From Eledone cirrhosa (lineage: Eukaryota), in the NCBI GenBank assembly GCA_964016885.1, contig OZ024744.1, positions 121,830,001 to 121,894,000 of the forward strand: a stretch of 64,000 bases of DNA, in the 5' to 3' direction. The position numbers and the translations under genes were made by a program. The notes beneath the pieces were generated by a model. That model ran no database searches and was not told the DNA's origin. It saw nothing but the letters and a program-made list of their open reading frames with translations. Of this stretch, positions 1 through 64,000 are shown piece after piece (the first letter of the stretch is position 1; each line of letters opens with the position of its first letter).

Positions 1-3000
1 TCTCTCTTCACAACATCCATCACTACCTCTATTCCTCTCACCCAGTCACTTTCATACTTCCTCAACACATGAACCAACCATCTCACACTATCTCTCTTCA
101 CAACATTTCATCACTACCTCTATTCCTCTCACCCAGTCACATTCATGCTTCCTCAACACATGACCCAACCATCTCACACTATCTCTCTTCACAACATTCA
201 TCAATACATCTATTCCCCTCACGCAGTCACTTTTATACTTCTTCAACACATGACCCAACCATCTCACACTATCTCTCTTCACAACATCCATCACTACATC
301 TATTCCTCTCACCCAGTCACTTTTATCCTTCCTCAACACATGACCCAACCATCTCACACTATCTGTCTTCACAAAATCCATCACTACCTCTATTCTTCTC
401 ACCCAGTCACTTTTATCCTTCTTCAACACATGACCCAACCATCTCACACTATCTCTCATCACAACAACCATCACTACCTCTATTCCTCTCACCCAGTTAC
501 TTTTATCCTTCCTCAACACATGACCCAACCATCTCACACTATCTCTCTTCACAACATCCATCACTACCTCTATTCCTCTCACCCAGTCACTTTCATACTT
601 CCTCAACACATGACCCAACCATCTCACACTATCTCTCTTCACAACATCCATCATTACCTCTATTCCTCTCACCCAGTCACTTTCATACTTCCTCAACACA
701 TGACCCAACCATCTCACACTATCTCTCTTCACAACATCCATCACTACCTCTATTCCTCTCACCCCGTCACTTTCATACTTCCTCAACACATGACCTAACC
801 ATCTCACACTATCTCTCTTCACAACATCCATCACTACCTCTGTTCCTCTCACCCAGTCACTTTTATCCTTCCTCAACACATGACCCAACCATCTCATACT
901 ATCTCTCTTCACAACATCCATCACTACCTCTGTTCCTCTCACCCAGTCACTTTTATCCATCCTCAACACATGACCCAACCATCTCACACTATCTCTCTTC
1001 ACAACATTTCATCACTACCTCTATTCCTCTCACCCAGTCACTTTCATACTTCCTCAACACATGACCCAAACATCTCACACTATCTCTCTTCACAACATCC
1101 ATCACTATCTCTATTCCTCTCAACCAGTCACTTTTATCCTTCCTCAACACATGACCTAACCATCTCATACTATCTCTCTTCACAACATCCATCACTACCT
1201 CTATTCCTCTCACCCAGTCACTATTATACTTCCTCAACACATGACCTAACCATCTCACACTATCTCTCTTCACAACATCCATTATTACCTCTGTTCTTCT
1301 CACCCAGTCACTTTCATACTTCCTCAACACATGACCCAACCATCTCACACTATCTCTCTTCACAACATCCATCACTACCTCAATTTCTCTCACCCAGTCA
1401 CTTTTATCCTTCCTCAACAGATGACCCAACCATCTCACACTATCTCTCTTCACAACATCCATCACTACCTCTATTCTTCTCACCCAGTCACTTTTATCCT
1501 TCCTCAACACATGACCCAACCATCTCACACTATCTCTCATCACAACAACCATCACTACCTCTATTCCTCTCACCCAGTTACTTTTATCCTTCCTCAACAC
1601 ATGACCCAGCCATCTCACACTATCTCTCTTCACAACATCCATCATTACTTCTGTTCCTCTCATCCAGTCACTTTCATACTTCCTCAACACATGACCCAAC
1701 CATCTCACACTATCTCTCTTCACAACATCCATCACTACCTCTATTCCTCTCACCCAGTCACTTTTATACTTCCTCAACACATGACCCAACCATCTCACAC
1801 TATCTCTCTTCACAACATCCATCACTACCTCTGTTCCTCTCACCCAGTCACTTTTATCCTTCCTCAACACATGACCCAACCATCTAACACTATCTCTCTT
1901 CACAACATTTCATCACTACCTTCATTCCTCTCAGCCAGTCACTTTTATCCTTCCTCAACACATGACCCAACCATCTCACACTATCTCTCTTCACAACATC
2001 CATCACTACCTCTATTCCTCTCACCCAGTCACTTTCATACTTCCTCAACACATGAGCCAACCATCTCACACTATCTCTCTTCACAACATCCATCACTACC
2101 TCTATTCCTCTCACCCAGTCACTTTTATCCTTCCTCAACACATGACCCAACCATCTCACACTATCTCTCTTCACAACATCCATCACTACCTCTATTCCTC
2201 TCACCCAGTCACTTTCATACTTCCACAACACATGACCAACCATCTCACATTATCTCTCTTCACGACACCCATCACTACCTCTATTCCTCTCACCCAGTCA
2301 CTTTAATACTTCCTCAACACATGAACCAACCATCTCACACTATCTCTCTTCACAACATTTCATCACTACCTCTATTCCTCTCACCCAGTCACTTTCATGC
2401 TTCCTCAACACATGACCCAACCATCTCACACTATCTCTCTTCACAACATTTCATCACTACCTCTATTCTTCTCACCCAGTCACTTTCATACTTCCTCAAC
2501 ACATGACCCAACCATCTCACACTATCTCTCTTCACAACATCCATCACTACCTCTATTCCTCTCACCCAGTTACCTTTATCCTTCCTCAACACATGACCCA
2601 ACCATCTCACACTATCTCTCTTCACAACACCCATCATTACCTCTGTTCCTCTCACCCAGTCACTTTCATACTTCCCCAACACATGACCCAACCATCTCAC
2701 ACTATCTCTCTTCACAACATCCATCACTACTTCTATTCCTCCCACCCAGTCACATTCATACTGCCTCAACACATGACCCAACCATCTCACACTATCTCTC
2801 TTCACAACATCCATCATTACCTCTATTCCTCTCACCCAGTCACTTTTATCCTTCCTCAACACATGACCCAACCATCTCACACTATCTCTCTTCACAACAT
2901 CCATCACTACCTCTATTCCTCTCAGCCAGTCACATTTATCCTTCCTCAACACATGACCCAACCATCTCACACTATCTCTCTTCACAACATACATCACTGC

Positions 3001-6000
3001 CTCTATTCCTCTCACCCAGTCACTTTCATACTTCCTCAACACATGACCCAACCATCTCACACTATCTCTCTTCACAACATCCATCACTACCTCTGTTCCT
3101 CTCACCCAGTCACTTTTATCCTTCCTCAACACATGACCCAACCATTCTCACACTATCTATCTTCACAACATCCATCACTACATCTATTCCTCTCACCCAG
3201 TCACTTTTATACTTTTTCAACACATGACCCAACCATCTCACACTATCTCTCTTCACAACATCCATCACTACATCTATGCCTCTCACACTGTCACTTTCAT
3301 ACTTCCTCAACACATGACCCAACCATCTCACACTATCTCTCTTCACAACATACATCACTACCTCTATTCCTCTCACCCAGTCACTTTTATCCTTCCTCAA
3401 CACATGACCTAACCATCTCACACTATCTCTCTTCACAACATCCATCACTACCTCCATTCCTCTCAGCCAGTCACTTTTATCCTTCCTCAACACATGAACC
3501 AACCATCTCACACTATCTCTCATCACAACAACCATCACTACCTTTATTCCTCTCACCCAGTTACTTTTATCCTTCCTCAACACATGACCCAGCCACCTCA
3601 CACTATCTCTCTCCACAACATCCATCATTACTTCTGTTCCTCTCATCCAGTCACCTTCATACTTCCTCAACACATGACCCAACCATCTCACACTATCTCT
3701 CTTCACAACATCCATCACTACCTCTATTCCTCTCACCCAGTCACTTTCATACTTCCTCAAAACATGACCCAACCATCTCACACTATCTCTCTTCACAACA
3801 TCCATCACTACCTCTGTTCCTCTCACCCAGTCACTTTTATCCTTCCTCAACACATGACCCAACCATCTAACACTATCTCTCTTCACAACATTTCATCACT
3901 ACCTTCATTCCTCTCAGCCAGTCACTTTTATCCTTCCTCAACACATGACCCAACCATCTCACACTATCTCTCTTCACAACATCCATCACTACCTCTATTC
4001 CTCTCACCCAGTCACTTTCACACTTTCTCAACACATGAGCCAACCATCTCACACTATCTCTCTTCACAACATCCATCACTACCTCTATTCCTCTCACCCA
4101 GTCATTTTAATCCTTCCTCAACACATGACCCAACCATCTCACACTATCTCTCTTCACAACATCCATCACTACCTCTATTCCTCTCACCCAGTCACATTCA
4201 TACTTCCACAACACATGACCAACCATCTCACATTATCTCCCTTCACAACACCCATCACTACCTCTATTCCTCTCACCCAGTCACTTTTATCCTTCCTCAA
4301 CACATGACCCAACCATCTCACACTATCTCTCTTCACAACATCCATTATTACCTCTGTTCCTCTCACCCAGTCACTTTCATACTTCCTCAACACATGACCC
4401 AACCATCTCACACTAACTCTCTTCACACCATTTCATCACTACCTCTATTCCTCTCAACCAATCACTTTCATACTTCCTCAACACATGACCTAACCATCTC
4501 ACACTATCTCTCTTCACGACATCCATCACTACCTCTGTTCCTCTCACCCAGTCACTTTCATACTTCCTCAACACATGAACCAACCATCTCACACTATCTC
4601 TCTTCACAACATTTCATCACTACCTCTATTCCTCTCACCCAGTCACTTTCATACTTCCTCAACACATGACCCAACCATCTCACACTATCTCTCTTCACAA
4701 CATTTCATCACTACCTCTATTCCTCTCACCCAGTCACTTTCATACTTCCTCAACACATGACCCAACCATCTCACACTATCTCTCTTCACAACATCCATCA
4801 CTACCTCTATTCCTCTCACCCAGTTACCTTTATCCTTCCTCAACACATGACCCAACCATCTCACACTATCTCACTTCACAACATCCATCATTACCTCTGT
4901 TCCTCTCACCCAGTCACTTTCATACTTCCTCAACACATGACCCAACCATCTCACACTATCTCTCTTCACAACATCCATCACTACCTCTATTCCTCTCACC
5001 CAGTCACTTTTATCCTTCCTCAACACATGACCCAACCATCTCACACTATCTCTCTTCACAACATCCATCACTACCTCTATTCCTCTCACCCAGTCACTTT
5101 TATCCTTCCTCAACACATGACCCAACCATCTCACACTATCTCTCTTCACAACATACATCACTACCTCTATTCCTCTCACCCAGTCACTTTTATCCTTCCT
5201 CAACAAATGACCTAACCATCTCACACTATCTCTCTTCACAACATCCATCACTACCTCCATTCCTCTTAGCCAGTCACTTTTATCCTTCCTCAACACATGA
5301 ACCAACCATCTCACACTATCTCTCATCACAACAACCATCACTACCTCTATTCCTCTCACCCAGTTACTTTTATCCTTCCTCAACACATGACCCAGCCATC
5401 TCACACTATCTCTCTTCACAACATCCATCATTACCTCTGTTCCTCTCACCCAGTCACATTCATACTGCCTCAACACATGACCCAACCATCTCACACTATC
5501 TCTCTTCACGACATCCATCACTACCTCTGTTCCTCTCACCCAGTCACTTTCATACTTCCTCAACACATGAACCAACCATCTCACACTATCTCTCTTCACA
5601 ACATTTCATCACTACCTCTATTCCTCTCACCCAGTCACTTTCATACTTCCTCAACACATGACCCAACCATCTCACACTATCTCTCTTCACAACATTTCAT
5701 CACTACCTCTATTCCTCTCACCCAGTCACTTTCATACTTCCTCAACACATGACCCAACCATCTCACAATATCTCTCTTCACAACATCCATCACTACCTCT
5801 ATTCCTCTCACCCAGTTACCTTTATCCTTCCTCAACACATGACCCAACCATCTCACACTATCTCTCATCACAACAACCATCACTACCTCTATTCCTCTCA
5901 CCCAGTCACATTCTAACTTCCTCAACACATGACCCAACCATCTCACACTATCTCTCTTCACAACATCCATCACTGCCTCTATTCCTCTCACCCAGTCACA

Positions 6001-8460
6001 TTCTAACTTCCTCAACACATGACCCAACCATCTCACACTATCTCTCTTCACAACATCCATCACTACCTCTATTCCTCTCACACAGTCACATTCATACTGC
6101 CTCAACACATGACCCAACTATCTCACACTATCTCTCTTCACAACATCCATCACTACTTCTATTCCTCTCACCCAGTCACTTTCATACTTCCTCAACACAT
6201 GAGCCAACCATCTAACACTATCTCTCTTCACAACATCCATCACTACCTCTATTCCTCTCACCCAGTCACTTTTATCCTTCCTCAACACATGACCCAACCA
6301 TCTCACACTATCTCTCTTCATAACATCCATCACTACCTCTATTGCTCTTACCCAGTCACTTTCATACTTCCTGAACACATGACCCAACCATCTCACACTA
6401 TCTCTCTTCACAACATCCATCACTACCTCTATTCCTCTCACCCAGTCACTTTTATCCTTCCTCAACACATGACCCAACCATCTCACACTATCTCTCTTCA
6501 CAACATCCATCACTACCTCTATTCCTCTCAGCCAGTCACATTTATCCTTCGTCAACACATGACCCAACCATCTCACACTATCTCTCTTCACAACATACAT
6601 CACTACCTCTATTCCTGTCACCCAGTCACTTTCATACTTCCTCAACACATGACCCAACCATCTCACACTATCTCTCTTCACAACATCCATCACTACCTCT
6701 GTTCCTCTCACCCAGTCACTTTTATCCTTCCTCAACACATGACCCAACCATTCTCACACTATCTATCTTCACAACAGCCATCACTACATCTATTCCTCTC
6801 ACCCAGTCACTTTTATACTTTTTCAACACATGACCCAACCATCTCACACTATCTCTCTTCACAACATCCATCACTACATCTATTCCTCTCACACTGTCAC
6901 TTTCATACTTCCTCAACACATGACCCAACCATCTCACACTATCTCTCTTCACAACATCCATCACTACCTCCATTCCTCTCAGCCAGTCACTTTTATCCTT
7001 CCTCAACACATGAACCAACCATCTCACACTATCTCTCATCACAACAACCATCACTACCTCTATTCCTCTCACACTGTCACTTTCATACTTCCTCAACACA
7101 TGACCCAACCATCTCACACTATCTCTCATCACAACAACCATCACTACCTCTATTCCTCTCACACTGTCACTTTCATACTTCCTCAACACATGACCCAACC
7201 ATCTCACACTATCTCTCTTCACAACATACATCACTACCTCTATTCCTCTCACCCAGTCACTTTTATCCTTCCTCAACACATGACCTAACCATCTCACACT
7301 ATCTCTCTTCACAACATCCATCACTACCTCCATTCCTCTCAGACAGTCACTTTTATCCTTCCTCAACACATGAACCAACCATCTCACACTATCTCTCATC
7401 ACAACAACCATCACTACCTCTATTCCTCTCATCCAGTCACTTTCATACTTCCTCAACACATGACCCAACCATCTCACACTATCTCTCTTCACAACATCCA
7501 TCACTACCTCTATTCCTCTCACCCAGTCACTTTCATACTTCCTCAACACATGACCCAACCATCTCACACTATCTCTCTTCACAACATCCATCACTACCTC
7601 TGTTCCTCTCACCCAGTCACTTTTATCCTTCCTCAACACATGACCCAACCATCTAACACTATCTCTCTTCACAACATTTCATCACTACCTTCATTCCTCT
7701 CAGCCAGTCACTTTTATCCTTCCTCAACACATGACCCAACCATCTCACACTATCTCTCTTCACAACATCCATCACTACCTCTATTCCTCTCACCCAGTCA
7801 CTTTCATACTTCCTCAACACATGAGCCAACCATCTCACACTATCTCTCTTCACAACATCCATCACTACCTCTATTCCTCTCACCCAGTCACTTTTATCCT
7901 TCCTCAACACATGACCCAACCATCTCACACTATCTCTCTTCACAACATCCATCACTACCTCTATTCCTCTCACCCAGTCAATTTCATACTTCCACAACAC
8001 ATGACCAACCATCTCACATTATCTCTCTTCACAACACCCATCACTACCTCTATTCCTCTCACCCAGTCACTTTTATCCTTCCTCAACACATGACCCAGCC
8101 ATCTCACACTATCTCTCTTCACAACATCCATCATTACCTCTGGTCCTCTCACCCAGTCACTTTCATACTTCCTCAACACATGACCCAACCATCTCACACT
8201 ATCTCTCTTCACAACATCCATCACTACATCTATTCCTCTCACACTGTCACTTTCATACTTCCTCAACACATGACCCAACCATCTCACACTATCTCTCTTC
8301 ACAACATACACCACTACCTCTATTCCTCTCACCCAGTCACTTTTATCCTTCCTCAACACATGAACCAACCATCTCACACTATCTCTCTTCACAACATCCA
8401 TCACTGCCTCTATTCCTCTCACCCAGTCACATTCTAACTTCCTCAACACATGACCCAACC

Positions 8461-10860
8461 CTCTAACACTATCTCTCTTCACAACATCCATCACTACCTC
8501 TATTCCTCTCACCCAGTCACTTTTATCCTTCCTCAACACATGACCCAACCATGTCACACTATCTCTCTTCACAACATCCATCACTACCTCTATTGCTCTT
8601 ACCCAGTCACTTTCATACTTCCTGAACACATGACCCAACCATCTCACACTATCTCTCTTCACAACATCCATCACTACCTCTATTCCTCTCACCCAGTCAC
8701 TTTTATCCTTCCTCAACACATGACCCAACCATCTCACACTATCTCTCTTCACAACATCCATCACTACCTCTATTCCTCTCAGCCAGTCACATTTATCCTT
8801 CCTCAACACATGACCCAACCATCTCACACTATCTCTCTTCACAACATACATCACTACCTCTATTCCTCTCACCCAGTCACTTTCATACTTCCTCAACACA
8901 TGACCCAACCCTCTAACACTATCTCTCTTCACAACATCCATCACTACCTCTATTCCTCTCACACGGTCACATTCATACTGCCTCAACACATGACCCAACC
9001 ATCTCACACTATCTCTCTTCACAACATCCATCACTATTTCTATTCCTCTCACCTAGTCACTTTTTTCCTTCCTCAACACATGACCCATCCATCTCACACT
9101 ATCTCTTTTCACAACAACCATCACTACCTCTATTCCTCTAACCCAGTTACTTTTATCCTTCCTCAACACATGACCCAACAATCTCACACTATCTCTCTTC
9201 ACAACATCCATTATTACCTCTGTTCCTCTCACCCAGTCACTTTCATACTTCCTCAACACATGACCCAACCATCTCACACTATCTCTCTTCACAACATCCA
9301 TCACTACCTCAATTTCTCTCACCCAGTCACTTTTATCCTTCCTCAACACATGACCCAACCATCTCACACTATCTCTCTTCACAACATCCATCACTACCTC
9401 TATTCCTCTCACCCAGTCACTTTTATCCTTCCTCAACACATGACCCAACCATGTCACACTATCTCTCTTCACAACATCCATCACTACCTCTATTGCTCTT
9501 ACCCAGTCACTTTCATACTTCCTGAACACATGACCCAACCATCTCACACTATCTCTCTTCACAACATCCATCACTACCTCTATTCCTCTCACCCAGTCAC
9601 TTTTATCCTTCCTCAACACATGACCCAACCATCTCACACTATCTCTCTTCACAACATCCATCACTACCTCTATTCCTCTCAGCCAGTCACATTTATCCTT
9701 CCTCAACACATGACCCAACCATCTCACACTATCTCTCTTCACAACATACATCACTACCTCTATTCCTCTCACCCAGTCACTTTCATACTTCCTCAACACA
9801 TGACCCAACCCTCTAACACTATCTCTCTTCACAACATCCATCACTACCTCTATTCCTCTCACACAGTCACATTCATACTGCCTCAACACATGACCCAACC
9901 ATCTCACACTATCTCTCTTCACAACATCAATCACTATTTCTATTCCTCTCACCTAGTCACTTTTATCCTTCCTCAACACATGACCCAACCATCTCACACT
10001 ATCTCTTTTCACAACAACCATCACTACCTCTATTCCTCTAACCCAGTTACTTTTATCCTTCCTCAACACATGACCCAACAATCTCACACTATCTCTCTTC
10101 ACAACATCCATTATTACCTCTGTTCCTCTCACCCAGTCACTTTCATACTTCCTCAACACATGACCCAACCATCTCACACTATCTCTCTTCACAACATCCA
10201 TCACTACCTCAATTTCTCTCACCCAGTCACTTTTATCCTTCCTCAACACATGACCCAACCATCTCACACTATCTCTCTTCACAACATCCATCACTACCTC
10301 TATTCCTCTCACCCAGTCACTTTCACACTTCCTCAACACATGAGCCAACCATCTAACACTATCTCTCTTCACAACATCCATCACTACCTCTATTCCTCTC
10401 ACCCAGTCACTTTTATCCTTCCTCAACACATGACCCAACCATGTCACACTATCTCTCTTCACAACATCCATCACTACCTCTATTGCTCTTACCCAGTCAC
10501 TTTCATACTTCCTGAACACATGACCCAACCATCTCACACTATCTCTCTTCACAACATCCATCACTACCTCTATTCCTCTCACCCAGTCACTTTTATCCTT
10601 CCTCAACACATGACCCAACCATCTCACACTATCTCTCTTCACAACATCCATCACTACCTCTATTCCTCTCAGCCAGTCACATTTATCCTTCCTCAACACA
10701 TGACCCAACCATCTCACACTATCTCTCTTCACAACATACATCACTACCTCTATTCCTCTCACCCAGTCACTTTCACACTTCCTCAACACATGACCCAACC
10801 ATCTCACACTATCTCTCTTCACAACATCCATCACTACCTCTGTTCCTCTCACCCAGTCAC
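8461..10860. repeat. Higher-order repeat of 10-11 monomers (900/990 bp)
   Basis: Rare variant ATGTCACACT at 8551, 9451 and 10441. ACCTAGTCAC at 9051 and 9951. The intervening variant order is the same in each unit. Confidence 0.9.
8687..8776 (-). mobile_element. Representative monomer: putative 30-codon relic of RTE-clade non-LTR retrotransposon ORF (region C-terminal to the RT domain); applies to every monomer
   Basis: Minus-strand translation of 8776->8687 is GIEVVMDVVKRDSVRWLGHVLRKDKSDWVR. It is collinear with the RTE/BovB-like pattern 'LGI..I...V.R.RLRW(F/L)GHV.R....WV', recognised from family knowledge without a search. No RT core (YADD), endonuclease or downstream RGRP motif is present. 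Confidence 0.75.
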
Positions 10861-12341
10861 TTTTATCCTTCCTCAACACATGACCCAACCATTCTCACAC
10901 TATCTATCTTCACAACATCCATCACTACATCTAATCCTCTCACCCAGTCACTTTTATACTTTTTCAACACATGACCCAACCATCTCACACTATCTCTCTT
11001 CACAACATCCATCACTACATCTATTCCTCTCACACTGTCACTTTCATACTTCCTCAACACATGACCCAACCATCTCACACTATCTCTCTTCACAACATAC
11101 ATCACTACCTCTATTCCTCTCACCCAGTCAATTTTATCCTTCCTCAACACATGACCTAACCATCTCACACTATCTCTCTTCACAACATCCATCACTACCT
11201 CCATTCCTCTCAGCCAGTCACTTTTATCCTTCCTCAACACATGAACCAACCATCTCACACTATCTCTCATCACAACAACCATCACTACCTCTATTCCTCT
11301 CACCCAGTTACTTTTATCCTTCCTCAACACATGACCCAGCCATCTCACACTATCTCTCTTCACAACATCCATCATTACTTCTGTTCCTCTCATCCAGTCA
11401 CTTTCATACTTCCTCAACACATGACCCAACCATCTCACACTATCTCTATTCACAACATCCATCACTACCTCTATTCCTCTCACCCAGTCACTTTCATACT
11501 TCCTCAACACATGACCCAACCATCTCACACTATCTCTCTTCACAACATCCATCACTACCTCTGTTCCTCTCACCCAGTCACTTTTATCCTTCCTCAACAC
11601 ATGACCCAACCATCTAACACTATCTCTCTTCACAACATTTCATCACTACCTTCATTCCTCTCAGCCAGTCACTTTTATCCTTCCTCAACACATGACCCAA
11701 CCATCTCACACTATCTCTCTTCACAACATCCATCACTACCTCTATTCCTCTCACCCAGTCACTTTCATACTTTCTCAACACATGAGCCAACCATCTCACA
11801 CTATCTCTCTTCACAACATCCATCACTACCTCTATTCCTCTCACCCAGTCACTTTTATCCTTCCTCAACATATGACCCAACCATCTCACACTATCTCTCT
11901 TCACAACATCCATCACTACCTCTATTGCTCTTACCCAGTCACTTTCATACTTCCTGAACACATGACCCAACCATCTCACACTATCTCTCTTCACAACATC
12001 CATCACTACCTCTATTCCTCTCACCCAGTCACTTTTATCCTTCCTCAACACATGACCCAACCATCTCACACTATCTCTCTTCACAACATCCATCACTACC
12101 TCTATTCCTCTCAGCCAGTCACATTTATCCTTCCTCAACACATGACCCAACCATCTCACACTATCTCTCTTCACGACATCCATCACTACCTCTGTTACTC
12201 TCACCCAGTCACTTTCATACTTCCTCAACACATGAACCAACCATCTCACACTATCTCTCTTCACAACATTTCATCACTACCTCTATTCCTCTCACCCAGT
12301 CACTTTCATACTTCCTCAACACATGACCCAACCATCTCACA

Positions 12342-15300
12342 CTATCTCTCTTCACAACATTTCATCACTACCTCTATTCCTCTCACCCAGTCACTTTCAT
12401 ACTTCCTCAACACATGACCCAACCATCTCACACTATCTCTCTTCACAACATCCATCTCTACCTCTATTCCTCTCACCCAGTTACCTTTATCCTTCCTCAA
12501 CACATGACCCAACCATCTCACACTATCTCTCTTCACAACATCCATCATTACCTCTGTTCCTCTCACCCAGTCACTTTCATACTTCCTCAACACATGACCC
12601 AACCATCTCACACTATCTCTCTTCACAAGATCCATCACTACTTCTATTCCTCTCACCCAGTCACTTTTATCCTTCCTCAACACATGACCCAACCATCTCA
12701 CACTATCTCTCTTCACAACATCCATCACTACCTCTATTCCTCTCAGCCAGTCACATTTATCCTTCCTCAACACATGACCCAACCATCTCACACTATCTCT
12801 CTTCACAACATCCATCACTACCTCTATTCCTCTCAGCCAGTCACTTTTATCCTTCCTCAACACATGAACCAACCATCTCACACTATCTCTCTTCACAACA
12901 TCCATCACTGCCTCTATTCCTCTCACCCAGTCACATTCTAACTTCTTCAACACATGACCCAACCATCTCACACTATCTCTCTTCACAACATCCATCACTA
13001 CCTCTATTCCTCTCACACAGTCACATTCATACTGCCTCAACACATGACCCAACCATCTCACACTATCTCTCTTCACAACATCCATCACTACTTCTATTCC
13101 TCTCACCCAGTCACTTTTATCCTTCCTCAACACATGACCCAACCATCTCACACTATCTCTCTTTACAACAACCATCACTACCTCTATTCCTCTAACCCAG
13201 TTACTTTTATCCTTCCTCAACACATGACCCAACAATCTCACACTATCTCTCTTCACAACATCCATTATTACCTCTGTTCCTCTCACCCAGTCACTTTCAT
13301 ATTTCCTCAACACATGACCCAACCATCTCACACTATCTCTCTTCACAACATCCATCACTACCTCAATTTCTCTCACCCAGTCACTTTTATCCTTCCTCAA
13401 CACATGACCCAACCATCTCACACTATCTCTCTTCACAACATCCATCACTACCTCTATTCCTCTCACCCAGTCACTTTCATACTTCCTCAACACATGAGCC
13501 AACCATCTAACACTATCTCTCTTCACAACATCCAACACTACCTCTATTCCTCTCACCCAGTCACTTTTATCCCTCCTCAACACATGACCCAACCATCTCA
13601 CACTATCTCTCTTCACAACATCCATCACTACCTCTATTGCTCTTACCCAGTCACTTTCATACTTCCTGAACACATGACCCAACCATCTCACACTATCTCT
13701 CTTCACAACATCCATCACTACCTCTATTCCTCTCACCCAGTCACTTTTAACCTTCCTCAAAACATGACCCAACCATCTCACACTATCTCTCTTCACAACA
13801 TCCATCACTACCTCTATTCCTATCACACAGTCACTTTTATACTTCCTCAACACAGGACCCAACCATCTCACACTATCCCTCTTCACAACATCCATCACTA
13901 CCTCTGTTCCTCTCACCCAGTCACATTCATACATCCTCAACACATGACCCACACATCTCAAACTATCTCTCTTCACAACATCCATCACTACCTCAATTTC
14001 TCTCACCCAGTCACTTTTATCCTTCCTCAACACATGACCCAACCATCTCACACTATCTCTCTTCACAACAACCATCACTACCTCTATTCCTCTAACCCAG
14101 TTACTTTTATCCTTCCTCAACACATGACCCAACAATCTCACACTATCTCTCTTCACAACATCCATTATTACCTCTGTTCCTCTCACCCAGTCACTTTCAT
14201 ACTTCCTGAACACATGACCCAACCATCTCACACTATCTCTCTTCACAACATCCATCACTACCTCAATTTCTCTCACCCAGTCACTTTTATCCTTCCTCAA
14301 CACATGACCTAACCATCTCACACTATCTCTCTTCACAACATCCATCACTACCTCCATTCCTCTCAGCCAGTCACTTTTATCCTTCCTCAACACATGAACC
14401 AACCATCTCACACTATCTCTCTTCACAACATCCATCACTGCCTCTATTCCTCTCACCCAGTCACTTTCTAACTTCTTCAACACATGACCCAACCATCTCA
14501 CACTATCTCTCTTCACAACATCCATCACTACCTCTATTCCTCTCACACAGTAACATTCATACTGCCTCAACACATGACCCAACCATCTCACACTATCTCT
14601 CTTCACAACATCCATCACTACTTCTATTCCTCTCACCCAGACACTTTTATCCTTCCTCAACACATGACCCAACCATCTCACACTATCTCTCTTCACAACA
14701 ACCATCACTACCTCTATTCCTCTAACCCAGTTACTTTTATCCTTCCTCAACACATGACCCAACAATCTCACACTATCTCTCTTCACAACATCCATTATTA
14801 CCTCTGTTCCTCTCACCCAGTCACTTTCATACTTCCTGAACACATGACCCAACCATCTCACACTATCTCTCTTCACAACATCCATCACTACCTCAATTTC
14901 TCTCACCCAGTCACTTTTATCCTTCCTCAACACATGACCCAACCATCTCACACTATCTCTCTTCACAACATCCATCACTACCTCTATTCCTCTCACCCAG
15001 TCACTTTCATACTTCCTCAACACATGAGCCAACCATCTAACACTATCTCTCTTCACAACATCCATCACTACCTCTATTCCTCTCACCCAGTCACTTTTAT
15101 CCCTCCTCAACACATGACCCAACCATCTCACACTATCTCTCTTCACAACATCCATCACTACCTCTATTGCTCTTACCCAGTCACTTTCATACTTCCTGAA
15201 CACATGACCCAACCATCTCACACTATCTCTCTTCACAACATCCATCACTACCTCTATTCCTCTCACCCAGTCACTTTTAACCTTCCTCAAAACATGACCC

Positions 15301-18300: not shown

Positions 18301-18926
18301 TCCATCACTACCTCAATTTTTCTCACCCAGTCACTTTTATCCTTCCTCAACACATGACCTAACCATCTCACACTATCTCTCTTCACAACATCCATCACTA
18401 CCTCTATTCTTCTCACCCAGTCACTTTTATCCTTCCTCAACACATGACCCAACCATCTCACACTATCTCTCATCACAACAACCATCACTACCTCTATTCC
18501 TCTCACCCAGTTACTTTTATCCTTCCTCAACACATGACCCAACCATCTCACACTATCTCTCTTCACAACATCCATCATTACTTCTGTTCCTCTCATCCAG
18601 TGACTTTCATACTTCCTCAACACATGACCTAACCATCTCACACTATCTCTCTTCAAAACATCCATCACTACCACTATTCCTCTCACCCAGTCACTTTTAT
18701 CCCTCCTCAACACATGACCCAACCATCTCACACTATCTCTCTTCATAACATCCATCACTACCTCTATTCCTCTCACCCAGTCACTTTCATACTTCCTCAA
18801 CACATGACCCAACCATCTCACACTATCTCTCTTCACAACATCCATCACTACCTCTGTTCCTCTCACCCAGTCACATTTATCCTTCCTCAACACATGACCC
18901 AACCATCTAACACTATCTCTCTTCAC
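12342..18926 (-). other. Longest indel- and stop-free run of the RTE-like frame (2194 codons, 73 monomers); probably not a real CDS
   Basis: ORF track entry. It begins and ends at the recurrent +1 variant ACAACATTTCA and has no unique N- or C-terminus. Confidence 0.6.
13141..18780. repeat. Nested higher-order repeat: 15-17-monomer units within a 31-32-monomer (2790/2880 bp) duplication
   Basis: The variant TTTTAACCTTCCTCAAAACATG has its AACATG at 13761, 15291, 16641 and 18081 (spacings 1530, 1350, 1440). GGATCC at 15385 and 18175 and TAACATTCAT at 14551 and 17341 are both 2790 apart. CACTATCCCT at 13871 and 16751 is 2880 apart. Confidence 0.9.
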
Positions 18927-39300: not shown

Positions 39301-39600
39301 CACAGTCACTTTTATACTTCCTCAACACAGGACCAAACCATCTCACACTATCTCTCTTCACAACATCCATCACTACCTCTGTTCCTCTCACCCAGTCACA
39401 TTCATACTTCCTCAACACATGACCCAACCATCTCACACTATCTCTCTTCACAACATCCATCACTACCTCTATTCCTCTCACCCAGTCACTTTTATACTTC
39501 CTCAACACATGACCTAACCCTCTCACACTATCTCTCTTCACAATATCCATCACTACCTCTGTTCCTCTCACCCAGTCACTTTTATCCTTCCTCAACACAT
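32880..39600. repeat. Two-level higher-order repeat: 18-mer (1620 bp) inside a 39-mer (3510 bp)
   Basis: CTTAACACAT at 33561, 35181, 37071 and 38691 (spacings 1620, 1890, 1620). CCCAGTAACT marks units 1 and 3 (33541, 37051). CTCAATACAT marks units 2 and 4 (35541, 39051). Confidence 0.92.
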
Positions 39601-40039
39601 GACCCAACCATCTCACACTATCTCTCTTCACAACATTTCATCACTACCTCTATTCCTCTCACCCAGTCACTTTCATACTTCCTCAACACATGACCCAAAC
39701 ATCTCACACTATCTCTCTTCACAACATCCATCACTACCTCTATTCCTCTCACCCAGTCACTTTTATCCTTCCTCAACACATGACCCAACCATCACACACT
39801 ATCTCTCTTCACAACATCCATTACTACCTCTGTTCCTCTCACCCAGTCACTTTCATTCTTCCTCAACACATGACCAACCATCTCACACTAACTCTCTTCA
39901 CAACATTTCATCACTACCTCTATTCCTCTCAACCAGTCACTTTTATCCTTCCTCAACACATGACCCAACCATTCTCACACTATCTCTCTTCACAACATCC
40001 ATCACTACCTCTCTTGCTCTTACCCACTCACTTTCATAC

Positions 40040-51200: not shown

Positions 51201-52519
51201 CCTCTCAGCCAGTCACTTTTATCCTTCCTCAACACATGAACCAACCATCTCACACTATCTCTCATCACAACAACCATCACTACCTCTATTCCTCTCACCC
51301 AGTTACTTTTATCCTTCCTCAACACATGACCCAGCCATCTCACACTATCTCTCTTCACAACATCCATCATTACTTCTGTTCCTCTCATCCAGTCACTTTC
51401 ATACTTCCTCAACACATGACCCAACCATCTCACACTATCTCTCTTCACAACATCCATCACTACCTCTATTCCTCTCACCCAGTCACTTTCATACTTCCTC
51501 AACACATGACCCAACCATCTCACACTATCTCTCTTCACAACATCCATCACTACCTCTGTTCCTCTCACCCAGTCACTTTTATCCTTCCTCAACACATGAC
51601 CCAACCATCTAACACTATCTCTCTTCACAACATTTCATCACTACCTTCATTCCTCTCAGCCAGTCACTTTTATCCTTCCTCAACACATGACCCAACCATC
51701 TCACACTATCTCTCTTCACAACATCCATCATTACTTCTGTTCCTCTCATCCAGTCACTTTCATACTTCCTCAACACATGACCCAACCATCTCACACTATC
51801 TCTCTTCACAACATCCATCACTACCTCTATTCCTCTCACCCAGTCACTTTCATACTTCCTCAACACATGAGCCAACCATCTCACACTATCTCTCTTCACA
51901 ACATCCATCACTACCTCTATTCCTCTCACCCAGTCACTTTTATCCTTCCTCAACACATGACCCAACCATCTCACACTATCTCTCTTCACAACATCCATCA
52001 CTACCTCTATTCCTCTCACCCAGTCACTTTCATACTTCCACAACACATGACCAACCATCTCACATTATCTCTCTTCACAACACCCATCACTACCTCTATT
52101 CCTCTCACCCAGTCACTTTTATCCTTCCTCAACACATGACCCAGCCATCTCACACTATCTCTCTTCACAACATCCATCATTACCTCTGTTCCTCTCACCC
52201 AGTCACTTTCATACTTCCTCAACACATGACCCAACCATCTCACACTATCTCTCTTCACAACATCCATCACTACATCTATTCCTCTCACACTGTCACTTTC
52301 ATACTTCCTCAACACATGACCCAACCATCTCACACTATCTCTCTTCACAACATACACCACTACCTCTATTCCTCTCACCCAGTCACTTTTATCCTTCCTC
52401 AACACATGACCCAACCATCTCACACTATCTCTCTTCACAACATCCATCACTACCTCTATTCCTCTCACCCAGTCACTTTCATACTTCCTCAACACATGAG
52501 CCAACCATCTCACACTATC

Positions 52520-55500
52520 TCTCTTCACAACATCCATCACTACCTCTATTCCTCTCAGCCAGTCACATTTATCCCTCCTCAACACATGACCCAACCATCT
52601 CACACTATCTCTCTTCACAACATACATCACTGCCTCTATTCCTCTCACCCAGTCACTTTCATACTTCCTCAACACATGACCCAACCATCTCACACTATCT
52701 CTCTTCACAACATCCATCACTACCTCTGTTCCTCTCACCCAGTCACTTTTATCCTTCCTCAACACATGACCCAACCATTCTCACACTATCTATCTTCACA
52801 ACATCCATCACTACATCTATTCCTCTCACCCAGTCACTTTTATACTTTTTCAACACATGACCCAACCAGCTCACACTATCTCTCTTCACAACATCCATCA
52901 CTACATCTATGCCTCTCACACTGTCACTTTCATACTTCCTCAACACATGACCCAACCATCTCACACTATCTCTCTTCACAACATACATCACTACCTCTAT
53001 TCCTCTCACCCAGTCACTTTTATCCTTCCTCAACACATGACCTAACCATCTTACACTATCTCTCTTCACAACATCCATCACTACCTCCATTCCTCTCAGC
53101 CAGTCACTTTTATCCTTCCTCAACACATGAACCAACCATCTCACACTATCTCTCATCACAACAACCATCACTACCTTTATTCCTCTCACCCAGTTACTTT
53201 TATCCTTCCTCAACACATGACCCAGCCATCTCACACTATCTCTCTCCACAACATCCATCATTACTTCTGTTCCTCTCATCCAGTCACCTTCATACTTCCT
53301 CAACACATGACCCAACCATCTCACACTATCTCTCTTCACAACATCCATCACTACCTCTATTCCTCTCACCCAGTCACTTTCATACTTCCTCAAAACATGA
53401 CCCAACCATCTCACACTATCTCTCTTCACAACATCCATCACTACCTCTGTTCCTCTCACCCAGTCACTTTTATCCTTCCTCAACACATGACCCAACCATC
53501 TAACACTATCTCTCTTCACAACATTTCATCACTACCTTCATTCCTCTCAGCCAGTCACTTTTATCCTTCCTCAACACATGACCCAACCATCTCACACTAT
53601 CTCTCTTCACAACATCCATCACTACCTCTATTCCTCTCACCCAGTCACTTTCATACTTCCTCAACACATGAGCCAACCATCTCACACTATCTCTCTTCAC
53701 AACATCCATCACTACCTCTATTCCTCTCACCCAGTCACTTTAATCCTTCCTCAACACATGACCCAACCATCTCACACTATCTCTCTTCACAACATCCATC
53801 ACTACCTCTATTCCTCTCACCCAGTCACATTCATACTTCCACAACACATGACCAACCATCTCACATTATCTCCCTTCACAACACCCATCACTACCTCTAT
53901 TCCTCTCACCCAGTCACTTTTATCCTTCCTCAACACATGACCCAACCATCTCACACTATCTCTCTTCACAACATCCATTATTACCTCTGTTCCTCTCACC
54001 CAGTCACTTTCATACTTCCTCAACACATGACCCAACCATCTCACACTAACTCTCTTCACAACATTTCATCACTACCTCTATTCCTCTCAACCAGTCACTT
54101 TCATACTTCCTCAACACATGACCTAACCATCTCACACTATCTCTCTTCACGACATCCATCACTACCTCTGTTCCTCTCACCCAGTCACTTTCATACTTCC
54201 TCAACACATGAACCAACCATCTCACACTATCTCTCTTCACAACATTTCATCACTACCTCTATTCCTCTCACCCAGTCACTTTCATACTTCCTCAACACAT
54301 GACCCAACCATCTCACACTATCTCTCTTCACAACAGTTCATCACTACCTCTATTCCTCTCACCCAGTCACTTTCATACTTCCTCAACACATGACCCAACC
54401 ATCTCACACTATCTCTCTTCACAACATCCATCACTACCTCTATTCCTCTCACCCAGTTACCTTTATCCTTCCTCAACACATGACCCAACCATCTCACACT
54501 ATCTCACTTCACAACATCCATCATTACCTCTGTTCCTCTCACCCAGTCACTTTCATACTTCCTCAACACATGACCCAACCATCTCACACTATCTCTCATC
54601 ACAACATCCATCACTACCTCTATTCCTCTCACCCAGTCACTTTTATCCTTCCTCAACACATGACCCAACCATCTCACACTATCTCTCTTCACAACATACA
54701 TCACTACCTCTATTCCTCTCACCCAGTCACTTTTATCCTTCCTCAACACATGACCTAACCATCTCACACTATCTCTCTTCACAACATCCATCACTACCTC
54801 CATTCCTCTTAGCCAGTCACTTTTATCCTTCCTCAACACATGAACCAACCATCTCACACTATCTCTCATCACAACAACCATCACTACCTCTATTCCTCTC
54901 ACCCAGTTACTTTTATCCTTCCTCAACACATGACCCAGCCATCTCACACTATCTCTCTTCACAACATCCATCATTACCTCTGTTCCTCTCACCCAGTCAC
55001 ATTCATACTGCCTCAACACATGACCCAACCATCTCACACTATCTCTCTTCACGACATCCATCACTACCTCTGTTCCTCTCACCCAGTCACTTTCATACTT
55101 CCTCAACACATGAACCAACCATCTCACACTATCTCTCTTCACAACATTTCATCACTACCTCTATTCCTCTCACCCAGTCACTTTCATACTTCCTCAACAC
55201 ATGACCCAACCATCTCACACTATCTCTCTTCACAACATTTCATCACTACCTCTATTCCTCTCACCCAGTCACTTTCATACTTCCTCAACACATGACCCAA
55301 CCATCTCACAATATCTCTCTTCACAACATCCATCACTACCTCTATTCCTCTCACCCAGTTACCTTTATCCTTCCTCAACACATGACCCAACCATCTCACA
55401 CTATCTCTCTTCACAACATCCATCACTACGTCTATTCCTCTCACCCAGTCACTTTTATCCTTCCTCAACACATGACCCAACCATCTCACACTATCTCTCT

Positions 55501-58500
55501 TCACAACATCCATCACTACCTCTATTCCTCTCACCCAGTCACTTTTATCCTTCCTCAACACATGACCCAACCATCTCACACTATCTCTCTTCACAACATA
55601 CATCACTACCTCTATTCCTCTCACCCAGTCACTTTTATCCTTCCTGAACACATGAACCAACCATTCTCACACTATCTCTCTTCACAACATCCATCACTAC
55701 CTCTATTCCTCTCAGCCAGTCACTTTTATCCTTCCTCAACACATGACCCAACCATTCTCACACTATCTATCTTCACAACATCCATCACTACATCTATTCC
55801 TCTCACCCAGTCACTTTTATACTTTTTCAACACATGACCCAACCATCTCACACTATCTCTCTTCACAACATCCATCACTACATCTATTCCTCTCACACTG
55901 TCAATTTCATACTTCCTCAAAACATGACCCAACCATCTCACACTATCTCTCTTCACAACATACATCACTACCTCTATTCCTCTCACCCAGTCACTTTTAT
56001 CCTTCCTCAACACATGACCTAACCATCTCACACTATCTCTCTTCACAACATCCATCACTACCTCCATTCCTCTCAGCCAGTCACTTTTATCCTTCCTCAA
56101 CACATGAACCAACCATCTCACACTATCTCTCTTCACAACATCCATCACTGCCTCTATTCCTCTCACCCAGTCACATTCTAACTTCCTCAACACATGACCC
56201 AACCATCTCACACTATCTCTCTTCACAACATCCATCACTACCTCTATTCCTCTCACACAGTCACATTCATACTGCCTCAACACATGACCCAACCATCTCA
56301 CACTATCTCTCTTCACAACATCCATCACTACTTCTATTCCTCTCACCCAGTCACTTTCATACTTCCTCAACACATGAGCCAACCATCTAACACTATCTCT
56401 CTTCACAACATCCATCACTACCTCTATTCCTCTCACCCAGTCACTTTTATCCTTCCTCAACACATGACCCAACCATCTCACACTATCTCTCTTCACAACA
56501 TCCATCACTACCTCTATTGCTCTTACCCAGTCACTTTCATACTTCCTGAACACATGACCCAACCATCTCACACTATCTCTCTTCACAACATCCATCACTA
56601 CCTCTATTCCTCTCACCCAGTCACTTTTATCCTTCGTCAACACATGACCCAACCATCTCACACTATCTCTCTTCACAACATACATCACTACCTCTATTCC
56701 TGTCACCCAGTCACTTTCATACTTCCTCAACACATGACCCAACCATCTCACACTATCTCTCTTCACAACATCCATCACTACCTCTGTTCCTCTCACCCAG
56801 TCACTTTTATCCTTCCTCAACACATGACCCAACGATTCTCACACTATCTATCTTCACAACATCCATCACTACATCTATTCCTCTCACCCAGTCACTTTTA
56901 TACTTTTTCAACACATGATCCAACAATCTCACACTATCTCTCTTCACAACATCCATCACTACATCTATTCTTCTCACACTGTCACTTTCACACTTCCTCA
57001 ACACATGACCCAACCATCTCACACTATCTCTCTTCACAACATACATCACTACCTCTATTCCTCTCACCCAGTCACTTTTATCCTTCCTCAACACATGACC
57101 TAACCATCTCACACTATCTCTCTTCACAACATCCATCACTACCTCCATTCCTCTCAGCCAGTCACTTTTATCCTTCCTCAACACATGAACCAACCATCTC
57201 ACACTATCTCTCATCACAACAACCATCACTACCTCTATTCCTCTCACCCAGTTACTTTTATCCTTCCTCAACACATGACCCAGCCATCTCACACTATCTC
57301 TCTTCACAACATCCATCATTACTTCTGTTCCTCTCATCCAGTCACTTTCATACTTCCTCAACACATGACCCAACCATCTCACACTATCTCTCTTCACAAC
57401 ATCCATCACTACCTCTATTCCTCTCACCCAGTCACTTTCATACTTCCTCAACACATGACCCAACCATCTCACACTATCTCTCTTCACAACATCCATCACT
57501 ACCTCTGTTCCTCTCACCCAGTCACTTTTATCCTTCCTCAACACATGACCCAACCATCTAACACTATCTCTCTTCACAACATTTCATCACTACCTTCATT
57601 CCTCTCAGCCAGTCACTTTTATCCTTCCTCAACACATGACCCAACCATCTCACACTATCTCTCTTCACAACATCCATCATTACTTCTGTTCCTCTCATCC
57701 AGTCACTTTCATACTTCCTCAACACATGACCCAACCATCTCACACTATCTCTCTTCACAACATCCATCACTACCTCTATTCCTCTCACCCAGTCACTTTC
57801 ATACTTCCTCAACACATGAGCCAACCATCTCACACTATCTCTCTTCACAACATCCATCACTACCTCTATTCCTCTCACCCAGTCACTTTTATCCTTCCTC
57901 AACACATGACCCAACCATCTCACACTATCTCTCTTCACAACATCCATCACTACCTCTATTCCTCTCACCCAGTCACTTTCATACTTCCACAACACATGAC
58001 CAACCATCTCACATTATCTCTCTTCACAACACCCATCACTACCTCTATTCCTCTCACCCAGTCACTTTTATCCTTCCTGAACACATGACCCAGCCATCTC
58101 ACACTATCTCTCTTCACAACATCCATCATTACCTCTGTTCCTCTCACCCAGTCACTTTCATACTTCCTCAACACATGACCCAACCATCTCACACTATCTC
58201 TCTTCACAACATCCATCACTACATCTATTCCTCTCACACTGTCACTTTCATACTTCCTCAACACATGACCCAACCATCTCACACTATCTCTCTTCACAAC
58301 ATACACCACTACCTCTATTCCTCTCACCCAGTCACTTTTATCCTTCCTCAACACATGACCTAACCATCTCACACTATCTCTCTTCACAACATCCATCACT
58401 ACCTCCATTCCTCTCAGCCAGTCACTTTTATCCTTCCTCAACACATGAACCAACCATCTCACACTATCTCTCTTCACAACATCCATCACTATTTCTATTC

Positions 58501-61500
58501 CTCTCACCCAGTCACATTCTAACTTCCTCAACACATGACCCAACCCTCTAACACTATCTCTCTTCACAACATCCATCACTACCTCTATTCCTCTCACACA
58601 GTCACATTCATACTGCCTCAACACATGACCCAACCATCTCACACTATCTCTCTTCACAACATCCATCACTATTTCTATTCCTCTCACCTAGTCACTTTTA
58701 TCCTTCCTCAACACATGACCCAACTATCTCACACTATCTCTTTTCACAACAACCATCACTACATCTATTCCTCTAACCCAGTTACTTTTATCCTTCCTCA
58801 ACACATGACCCAACAATCTCACACTATCTCTCTTCACAACATCCATTATTACCTCTGTTCCTCTCACCCAGTCACTTTCATACTTCCTCAACACATGACC
58901 CAACCATCTCACACTATCTCTCTTCACAACATCCATCACTACCTCAATTTCTCTCACCCAGTCACTTTTATCCTTCCTCAACACATGACCCAACCATCTC
59001 ACACTATCTCTCTTCACAACATCCATCACTACCTCTATTGCTCTTACCCAGTCACTTTCATACTTCCTGAACACATGACCCAACCATCTCACACTATCTC
59101 TCTTCACAACATCCATCACTACCTCTATTCCTCTCACCCAGTCACTTTTATCCTTCCTCAACACATGACCCAACCATCTCACACTATCTCTCTTCACAAC
59201 ATCCATCACTACCTCTATTCCTCTCAGCCAGTCACATTTATCCTTCCTCAACACATGACCCAACCATCTCACACTATCTCTCTTCACAACATACATCACT
59301 ACCTCTATTCCTCTCACCCAGTCACTTTCATACTTCCTCAACACATGACCCAACCCTCTAACACTATCTCTCTTCACAACATCCATCACTACCTCTATTC
59401 CTCTCACACAGTCACATTCATACTGCCTCAACACATGACCCAACCATCTCACACTATCTCTCTTCACAACATCCATCACTATTTCTATTCCTCTCACCTA
59501 GTCACTTTTATCCTTCCTCAACACATGACCAAACCATCTCACACTATCTCTTTTCACAACAACCATCACTACCTCTATTCCTCTAACCCAGTTAATTTTA
59601 TCCTTCCTCAACACATGACCCAACAATCTCACACTATCTCTCTTCACAACATCCATTATTACCTCTGTTCCTCTCACCCAGTCACTTTCATACTTCCTCA
59701 ACACATGACCCAACCATCTCACACTATCTCTCTTCACAACATCCATCACTACCTCAATTTCTCTCACCCAGTCACTTTTATCCTTCCTCAACACATGACC
59801 CAACCATCTCACACTATCTCACTTCACAACATCCATCACTACCTCTATTCTTCTCACCCAGTCACTTTCACACTTCCTCAACACATGAGCCAACCATCTA
59901 ACACTATCTCTCTTCACAACATCCATCACTACCTCTATTCCTCTCACCCAGTCACTTTTATCCTTCCTCAACACATGACACAACCATGTCACACTATCTC
60001 TCTTCACAACATCCATCACTACCTCTATTGCTCTTACCCAGTCACTTTCATACTTCCTGAACACATGACCCAACCATCTCACACTATCTCTCTTCACAAC
60101 ATCCATCACTACCTCTATTCCTCTCACCCAGTCACTTTTATCCTTCCTCAACACATGACCCAACCATCTCACACTATCTCTCTTCACAACATCCATCACT
60201 ACCTCTATTCCTCTCAGCCAGTCACATTTATCTTTCCTCAACACATGACCCAACCATCTCACACTATCTCTCTTCACAACATACATCACTACCTCTATTC
60301 CTCTCACCCAGTCACTTTCATACTTCCTCAACACATGACCCAACCATCTCACACTATCTCTCTTCACAACATCCATCACTACCTCTGTTCCTCTCACCCA
60401 GTCACTTTTATCCTTCCTCAACACATGACCCAACCATTCTCACACTATCTATCTTCACAACATCCATCACTACATCTAATCCTCTCACCCAGTCACTTTT
60501 ATACTTTTTCAACACATGACCCAACCATCTCACACTATCTCTCTTCACAACATCCATCACTACATCTATTCCTCTCACACTGTCACTTTCATACTTCCTC
60601 AACACATGACCCAACCATCTCACACTATCTCTCTTCACAACATACATCACTACCTCTATTCCTCTCACCCAGTCAATTTTATCCTTCCTCAACACATGAC
60701 CTAACCATCTCACACTATCTCACTTCACAACATCCATCACTACCTCCATTCCTCTCAGCCAGTCACTTTTATCCTTCCTCAACACATGAACCAACCATCT
60801 CACACTATCTCTCATCACAACAACCATCACTACCTCTATTCCTCTCACCCAGTTACTTTTATCCTTCCTCAACACATGACCCAGCCATCTCACACTATCT
60901 CTCTTCACAACATCCATCATTACTTCTGTTCCTCTCATCCAGTCACTTTCATACTTCCTCAACACATGACCCAACCATCTCACACTATCTCTATTCACAA
61001 CATCCATCACTACCTCTATTCCTCTCACCCAGTCACTTTCATACTTCCTCAACACATGACCCAACCATCTCACACTATCTCTCTTCACAACATCCATCAC
61101 TACCTCTGTTCCTCTCACCCAGTCACTTTTATCCTTCCTCAACACATGACCCAACCATCTAACACTATCTCTCTTCACAACATTTCATCACTACCTTCAT
61201 TCCTCTCAGCCAGTCACTTTTATCCTTCCTCAACACATGACCCAACCATCTCACACTATCTCTCTTCACAACATCCATCACTACCTCTATTCCTCTCACC
61301 CAGTCACTTTCATACTTTCTCAACACATGAGCCAACCATCTCACACTATCTCTCTTCACAACATCCATCACTACCTCTATTCCTCTCACCCAGTCACTTT
61401 TATCCTTCCTCAACATATGACCCAACCATCTCACACTATCTCTCTTCACAACATCCATCACTACCTCTATTGCTCTTACCCAGTCACTTTCATACTTCCT

Positions 61501-61700
61501 GAACACATGACCCAACCATCTCACACTATCTCTCTTCACAACATCCATCACTACCTCTATTCCTCTCACCCAGTCACTTTTATCCTTCCTCAACACATGA
61601 CCCAACCATCTCACACTATCTCTCTTCACAACATCCATCACTACCTCTATTCCTCTCAGCCAGTCACATTTATCCTTCCTCAACACATGACCCAACCATC
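52520..61700. repeat. Long-range copy of the 2.9-12.1 kb block (offset ~49.5-50.1 kb)
   Basis: Private variants recur in order: CATCTATGCC 3271/52904 and CTCCACAACA 3611/53244 (49633 apart); TGTCACCC 6616/56701 (50085); CTAATCCTCT 10931/60476 and CATATG 11869/61414 (49545). Confidence 0.88.
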
Positions 61701-64000
61701 TCACACTATCTCTCTTCACAACATACATCACTACCTCTATTCCTCTCACCCAGTCACTTTCATACTTCCTCAACACATGACCCAACCATCTCACACTATC
61801 TCTCTTCACAACATCCATCACTACCTCTGTTCCTCTCACCCAGTCACTTTTATACTTTTTCAACACATGACCCAACCATCTCACACTATCTCTCTTCACA
61901 ACATCCATCACTACATCTATTCCTCTGACACTGTCACTTTCATACTTCCTCAACACATGACCCAACCATCTCACACTATCTCTCTTCACAACATCCATCA
62001 CTACCTCTATTCCTCTCACCCAGTCACTTTTATCCTTCCTCAACACATGACCCAACCATCTCACACTATCTCTCTTCACAACATCCATCACTACCTCTAT
62101 TCCTCTCAGCCAGTCACATTTATCTTTCCTCAACACATGACCCAACCATCTCACACTATCTCTCTTCACAACATACATCACTACCTCTATTCCTCTCACC
62201 CAGTCACTTTCATACTTCCTCAACACATGACCCAACCATCTCACACTATCTCTCTTCACAACATCCATCACTACCTCTGTTCCTCTCACCCAGTCACTTT
62301 TATCCTTCCTCAACACATGACCCAACAATCTCACACTATCTCTCTTCACAACATCCATCACTACCTCTATTCCTCTCACCCAGTCACTTTCATACTTCCT
62401 CAACACATGACCCAACCCTCTAACACTATCTCTCTTCACAACATCCATCACTACCTCTATTCCTCTCACACAGTCACATTCATACTGCCTCAACACATGA
62501 CCCAACCATCTCACACTATCTCTCTTCACAACATCCATCACTATTTCTATTCCTCTCACCTAGTCACTTTTATCCTTCCTCAACACATGACCCAACAATC
62601 TCACACTATCTCTCTTCACAACATCCATTATTACCTCTGTTCCTCTCACCCAGTCACTTTCATACTTCCTCAACACATGACCCAACCATCTCACACTATC
62701 TCTCTTCACAACATCCATCACTACCTCAATTTCTCTCACCCAGTCACTTTTATCCTTCCTCAACACATGACCCAACCATCTCACACTATCTCTCTTCACA
62801 ACATCCATCACTACCTCTATTCCTCTCACCCAGTCACTTTCACACTTCCTCAACACATGAGCCAACCATCTAACACTATCTCTCTTCACAACATCCATCA
62901 CTACCTCTATTCCTCTCACCCAGTCACTTTTATCCTTCCTCAACACATGACACAACCATGTCACACTATCTCTCTTCACAACATCCATCACTACCTCTAT
63001 TGCTCTTACCCAGTCACTTTCATACTTCCTGAACACATGACCCAACCATCTCACACTATCTCTCTTCACAACATCCATCACTACCTCTATTCCTCTCACC
63101 CAGTCACTTTTATCCTTCCTCAACACATGACCCAACCATCTCACACTATCTCTCTTCACAACATCCATCACTACCTCTATTCCTCTCAGCCAGTCACATT
63201 TATCTTTCCTCAACACATGACCCAACCATCTCACACTATCTCTCTTCACAACATACATCACTACCTCTATTCCTCTCACCCAGTCACTTTCATACTTCCT
63301 CAACACATGACCCAACCATCTCACACTATCTCTCTTCACAACATCCATCACTACCTCTGTTCCTCTCACCCAGTCACTTTTATCCTTCCTCAACACATGA
63401 CCCAACCATTCTCACACTATCTATCTTCACAACATCCATCACTACATCTAATCCTCTCACCCAGTCACTTTTATACTTTTTCAACACATGACCCAACCAT
63501 CTCACACTATCTCTCTTCACAACATCCATCACTACATCTATTCCTCTCACACTGTCACTTTCATACTTCCTCAACACATGACCCAACCATCTCACACTAT
63601 CTCTCTTCACAACATACATCACTACCTCTATTCCTCTCACCCAGTCAATTTTATCCTTCCTCAACACATGACCTAACCATCTCACACTATCTCTCTTCAC
63701 AACATCCATCACTACCTCCATTCCTCTCAGCCAGTCACTTTTATCCTTCCTCAACACATGAACCAACCATCTCACACTATCTCTCATCACAACAACCATC
63801 ACTACCTCTATTCCTCTCACCCAGTTACTTTTATCCTTCCTCAACACATGACCCAGCCATCTCACACTATCTCTCTTCACAACATCCATCATTACTTCTG
63901 TTCCTCTCATCCAGTCACTTTCATACTTCCTCAACACATGACCCAACCATCTCACACTATCTCTATTCACAACATCCATCACTACCTCTATTCCTCTCAC

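Follow-up and report, generated by a model that had tools for sequence, protein, structure and literature searches.

The 90-bp satellite that fills a 64,000-nucleotide stretch of Eledone cirrhosa contig OZ024744.1 (C28; G000:C28:121,830,001-121,894,000; hereafter the window) is, as its sequence reads, built from a 30-codon coding segment that lies downstream of the reverse transcriptase (RT) domain in an old RTE-type LINE family, family A. This satellite, which we name satA, probably grew in place from a short array that was carried and spread by an RTE source element, itself likely defective. TRF run on the window returned a period of 90 with 710.5 copies spanning positions 1-64000, and the whole window is one tandem array, in agreement with the original prediction of about 710 copies. 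The array is long, head-to-tail and homogenised, as satellite DNA is: 624 of the 710 monomers are 90 bp long and the other 86 between 88 and 93 bp; they average 95.8% identity to the commonest monomer (31/710 being exact copies), 307 of them are distinct, and the mean pairwise difference is 7.0%. The features of the window are as follows.

1..64000, minus strand: satA, 710.5 monomers joined head to tail, belonging to the minus arm G000:C28:121,801,281-122,325,288.
63094..63183, minus strand: exact copy of the commonest monomer, aligning with residues 542-571 of the RT protein P0002 (conserved post-RT motif).
63079..63108, minus strand: head-to-tail junction, between 63094 and 63093, seen in parent-like form at 33 LINE loci dispersed through the genome as well as at the outer array edge.

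Two main monomer types, told apart at columns 70 and 73, make up 348 and 300 of the 710 window monomers; both are a single step away from the parent state, and this state persists at up to 14% in plus-arm samples. A 180-bp higher-order repeat was considered and rejected, since the two types do not alternate regularly in the window: the letter at column 70 is the same with a frequency of 0.40 at lag 1 and 0.48 at lag 2. The best-match lags within the window are 39-42 and 550-551 monomers, which indicates block duplications.

Protein search with a monomer dimer returned three proteins, among them the aligned RT protein P0002, with which the monomer shares 25/30 residues at a score of 148; the maximum over 1000 shuffles was 52. 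P0002 carries an RT domain, the Pfam RVT_1 match ending at residue 352, and the matched segment is a conserved motif downstream of it that is followed, as had been predicted, by an RGRP motif. Pfam searches with the satA monomer and dimer gave nothing above cut-off. Searching the genome with P0001 revealed two LINE groups, of which 30 loci were fetched: family A, whose copies are old, stop-ridden and 55-65% identical to P0001, and family B, which is younger and has open frames of up to ~1024 codons. At the nucleotide level satA aligns with 11/30 of these loci at 77-87% identity, 10 of the 11 over at least 89 nt, and its mean identity to the last units of family-A copies is 82.8% (30 of the 41 copies of the blind set described below, with at least 80 aligned columns). 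The monomer is thus collinear at the DNA level with a dispersed element, as in a transposon-derived satellite, and both the internal LINE origin and the match across the full 90 bp that the original prediction put forward are borne out.

The parent family is still in the genome, also as anticipated, in old and degraded form. Family A is ~13% diverged with many stops (single units lie 13.4% from the family's columns), all the copies of it that were seen are broken and most of them 5'-truncated, and no intact family-A copy or source element was found in the host genome. We looked for one internal deletion common to the family-A copies; none was seen, the deletions differing between copies. The suggestion that the satellite family is young holds only in part: its copies are 7.0% apart pairwise, and the monomer, or its diagnostic part, is recorded in public runs under five organism labels. 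Family B includes an intact copy, L249, with the RTE layout of a single 1024-aa ORF holding an AP endonuclease, an RT and a short C-terminal part; relatives of P0002 likewise carry PF03372 and PF00078. We accordingly class both families as RTE-type on their domain layout and on motifs known from that clade rather than on an RT tree, a probable assignment. The P0002 cluster contains a protein labelled 'craniofacial development protein 2-like', a name that we take to mark RTE-derived proteins. Among the nearest public relatives of family A (the P0002 cluster and P0029) are hagfish-annotated proteins, and these may hint at a marine RTE lineage, possibly one moving between phyla. Host family A has Met in 34/39 copies at a position that is Leu in 58/58 public proteins, which could be a hint of a defective source element.

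With the window included, satA amounts to ~0.94 Mb, divided between two arms of opposite orientation on C28, placed by sampling rather than by end-to-end reading, with a second satellite, satB, and several others nearby.

G000:C28:121,048,799-121,464,024, plus strand: satA plus arm, placed by sampling.
G000:C28:121,801,281-122,325,288, minus strand: satA minus arm, placed by sampling, includes the window.
C28 121,478,316-121,591,947 (L123:4316 to L124:8947): satB, a different 90-bp unit, 114 kb, between the satA arms.
C18 ~5.356-5.47 Mb (L251, L266, L267), C9 (L211) and C12 (L216): other satB arrays.
C28 120.6-121.006 Mb (L021-L022, L071-L073, L126), 122.33-122.38 Mb (L037, L088-L090) and 122.48 Mb (L038): 64-bp, 42-bp and telomere-like ~23-bp satellites.

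Thirteen samples over both satA arms are 95-97% identical to the same monomer, and the arms are alike. A diagnostic satA 31-mer has 4904 exact genome matches, none of them listed before C28, and satA in that form is therefore absent from contigs C1-C27; as the 31-mer is present in 356/710 window monomers, we estimate ~9,800 satA copies. The original prediction proposed that the array ends might preserve flanking parts of the parent element. Parent LINE flanks were sought at all four satA ends and none was found, the adjacent RT matches being other insertions. The terminal monomers on the outer side of the minus arm carry parent-like letters together with the satellite junction and are interrupted by an inverted family-B fragment; these parent-like edge monomers suggest that an older short array expanded in place.

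In the assembly as scaffolded, which sets the orientation of the arms, the two face inward from either side of a 337-kb interval. That one array had simply been inverted was considered and set aside: the two candidate breakpoints are out of phase and samples there have no excess of shared monomers, so that the arrangement is unexplained. A 48-bp satellite at C28 ~121.02-121.03 and 121.60-121.63 Mb (L074:8430-10000, L075, L076, L082, L083) resembles the internal repeats of RTE 3' UTRs (74-83% to L097/L265, L211, L105 and L249) and, judged by this resemblance, is a third RTE-derived satellite of the C28 block. The 64-, 42- and ~23-bp satellites flank the satA arms, the satellite mosaic totalling ~1.9 Mb; compared with a set of the RTE copies, they gave no match. 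C28 is 136.5 Mb long and out of size order, those contigs viewed between C1 and C26 descending from 443 to 24 Mb. Separately named chromosomes, sex chromosomes for example, often break contig size order, and C28 stands out of order as such a chromosome would.

A series of intermediates is evident from the dispersed family-A loci. A junction probe with parent-like letters gave 87 matches at 34 loci on 17 contigs (reversed control, 0); these comprise 33 family-A loci scattered over 16 other contigs plus the C28 array edge. In the stretches fetched, the dispersed loci hold from about 1 to 89 or more units (~95 at most), and at 21/33 native LINE sequence continues downstream. The LINE 3' fragments form a continuum of 1, 2-7, 10-40 and ~95 units sharing one junction; the longer dispersed arrays, the largest of which (C24) is ~8.6 kb, have locus-specific homogenised variants, including shorter units. 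L288 (C2:266.4 Mb) carries an array whose 99-bp units derive from this family-A segment too, by way of a second direct repeat.

To this we can add a set chosen regardless of duplication, namely all 41 matches to the native downstream junction (the blind set). Among these 41 3' ends, 16 are multi-unit, 17 are single with native sequence upstream and 8 are truncated within the unit, classes that were assigned by eye because the automated unit walker took native upstream sequence for units at some loci; the multi-unit share of the informative copies is 16/33. The junctions are of mixed type (90 bp, 99 bp and partial). Multi-unit copies retain native LINE flanks, as is expected where the direction is from element to satellite, and the motif occurs twice in 0/58 public proteins, the single-unit form being the conserved protein state. 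Two multi-unit loci, L148 (C4) and L192 (C2), have ~230 bp of similar upstream sequence that stops where the unit begins (79% identity along 306 bp, unit included), which would be either a composite element or a target site common to both.

The same path appears to have been taken a second time. The satB unit aligns with family B at 77-83% nucleotide identity over at least 88 nt at 20/30 fetched loci, and it covers codons overlapping those of satA, out of register with them. For the satB junction there are 1907 exact matches, with arrays on C9, C12 and C18 among the matches listed. The C9 array consists of about ten units within a truncated LINE that keeps its native 3' end, and copies on C22 and C24 have 4 and 6 units, respectively, with native flanks on both sides. 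Duplicated young family-B copies number 0 among the first 30 of 10,972 native-junction matches. Two RTE families have on this evidence given separate 90-bp satellites from overlapping codons, a parallel origin.

Given that the monomer can be read as protein, we asked whether the array is coding. The commonest monomer has one open frame of three on the minus strand, which encodes the peptide originally predicted, and two of three on the plus strand. The prediction of a single open minus-strand frame thus stands for the monomer and fails for the array, in which the word WLGHV occurs in all three minus frames (230, 126 and 160 occurrences in the window) because indels move the frame along it, and 127/710 monomers are broken by a stop or an indel. 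Open frames were found in 17% of 5000 shuffled monomers, so openness is weak evidence and homology strong evidence. It could be supposed that translation into a repeat protein holds the array in frame: the longest minus-strand stop-free stretch in the window is 2196 aa, stop-free runs reach 72 monomers, and copy-weighted stops are 48 against 165 expected. Copy-weighted synonymous changes are also few, 319 against 527 expected, and weighted counts are not independent; among distinct variants, the non-synonymous, synonymous and stop classes number 128/32/9, where the mutation spectrum predicts 125.8/33.1/10.1. Further, satA has Ser and Val where 55/58 public proteins have Arg and 58/58 have Leu, and the usual unit of the sister satellite satB contains an in-frame stop. 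A translated repeat protein is accordingly extremely improbable. Purifying selection on one frame is not seen, the claim that the frame is being maintained finds no support, given the neutral variants and the lost invariant residues, and the satA array is non-coding; its open frame is inherited, with no clear sign of selection, simply because the unit comes from an ORF and its length is divisible by three.

We then considered when the unit was first duplicated. Comparison of first and last units at 15 multi-unit loci (after removal of three pseudo-units; L186 had one alignable unit only) reveals 20 shared derived changes (1.9% of sites; 1.2% between loci) and 174 private ones, and the few shared against many private changes therefore make most duplications about as old as the insertions, or earlier. 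This argues against duplication of single-unit copies later in DNA, by microhomology-mediated repair or replication slippage acting independently at each locus, since first-last pairs mostly share almost nothing; and about half of the informative copies are duplicated, yet the direct repeat at the segment ends is short and imperfect. Growth after insertion is clear for the longer arrays, and a few loci do have derived changes common to their units (5 at L192, 4 at L202, 3 at L259), but as the origin of the short arrays such later events seem to us quite improbable.

The similar age of duplications and insertions would equally be seen if the short arrays had been made at insertion, RT slipping back 90 or 99 nt at the direct repeat independently at each locus. 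The mixed junctions, which require either that the source array varied or that events recurred, are consistent with slippage of this kind, as is the duplication of overlapping codons in the second family, once with a different junction; 5' ends appear, by eye, somewhat enriched near the unit start. By their downstream flanks, multi-unit copies do not group apart from single-unit ones (permutation p=0.61), so a duplicated subfamily is not visible there, again as slippage would have it. The letter at column 9, however, depends on unit position: native-start units are A19/G9 (2 other) and post-junction units A8/G29 (p=3e-4), and the blind loci by themselves give 16A/8G versus 0A/8G (p=0.002), while a paired within-locus test gives 3 versus 0 (p=0.25) with the little power of 8 loci. 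Because column 9 differs by unit position, copying one template twice is ruled against, and the pattern speaks for a source element in which the first unit may already have differed from those after it. Slippage at insertion would also have to accommodate the 0/30 duplicated copies of young family B, where the parent-like junction has 3 matches at 2 loci against the 10,972 native-junction matches (probes unmatched for age). We judge it unlikely. A direct-repeat scan of the intact L249 showed no outstanding repeat pair at the satellite segment.

We therefore hold it likely that satA grew in place from a short array spread by a source element. A duplication at the short imperfect direct repeat, whose copies are 90 bp (or 99 bp) apart, would have arisen in the source element; the array-bearing element would then have been copied by retrotransposition to many loci, where some seeds may have lengthened through unequal exchange or slippage. 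The C28 seed would have fixed ~5-7 changes and gone on to ~10,000 copies via multi-kb block duplications.

The satellite also occurs in other sequencing runs; a look for expression listed no RNA run that contains it. The exact satA monomer is present in contigs of four public runs, under four organism labels from three studies, and the 90-base go-back joint is in the contigs of three of those four; under a fifth organism label, the diagnostic part is in a contig and junction reads are in the raw run. These occurrences suggest that satA is not confined to one sample, although one label may be the host and contigs do not give copy number.

Comparable systems are on record. In Lathyrus sativus, as far as the available text of the report goes, Ogre LTR-retrotransposons bear short arrays, some of which expanded to long homogenised satellites (PMC7004042); as here, the short arrays lie in dispersed retroelements and the genome shows the intermediates, whereas the Ogre repeats come from the 3' UTR of LTR elements and satA from non-LTR LINE coding sequence, in whole codons, with two families using overlapping codons. 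LINE ORF2 pieces in satellites are described in the consulted portion of a review (chicken HinfI/CR1, Phodopus PROsat/L1, and the cetacean common satellite/L1 3' end; PMC9659126), cases that like satA contain LINE sequence, ORF sequence included. In those cases the LINE piece lies within, or is similar to, a larger monomer, whereas the satA monomer is entirely one ORF segment; the word RTE has 0 occurrences in the text of that review available to us. RTE-clade LINEs such as RTE-2_OV are described, in the portion of the source used, as having a single ORF with AP endonuclease and RT and a microsatellite-like 3' end (PMC9115989), a layout that the 1024-aa ORF of family-B L249 resembles; unlike such elements, satA is a dead fragment, and its parent A was seen in broken copies only. 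No RTE-coding-derived satellite was found in the literature searched, repeat databases and supplements lying outside that search. As far as these sources go, transposon-derived satellites are already known, and what is new is the LINE-coding variant with its full intermediate series and parallel origin.

A wider reading, speculative and on balance improbable, would make the 30 post-RT codons a recurrent satellite nursery across unrelated RTE families through a shared property of the segment, with 90-bp in-register units travelling with the element and seeding satellites genome-wide, and the C28 block functional heterochromatin, possibly sex-linked and shared by related species. In practical terms, such arrays are prone to mis-annotation as RT-like genes, or to inflating LINE counts. 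How satellites begin has as a rule to be deduced from the finished arrays; in this genome all the stages of one unit are present together, from the single segment through 2-7 copies in dispersed LINEs and 10-95-copy arrays with private variants to a 0.94-Mb array. Together, the intermediate series and the repetition of the path in a second family make the origin and growth of satellite seeds testable by counting.
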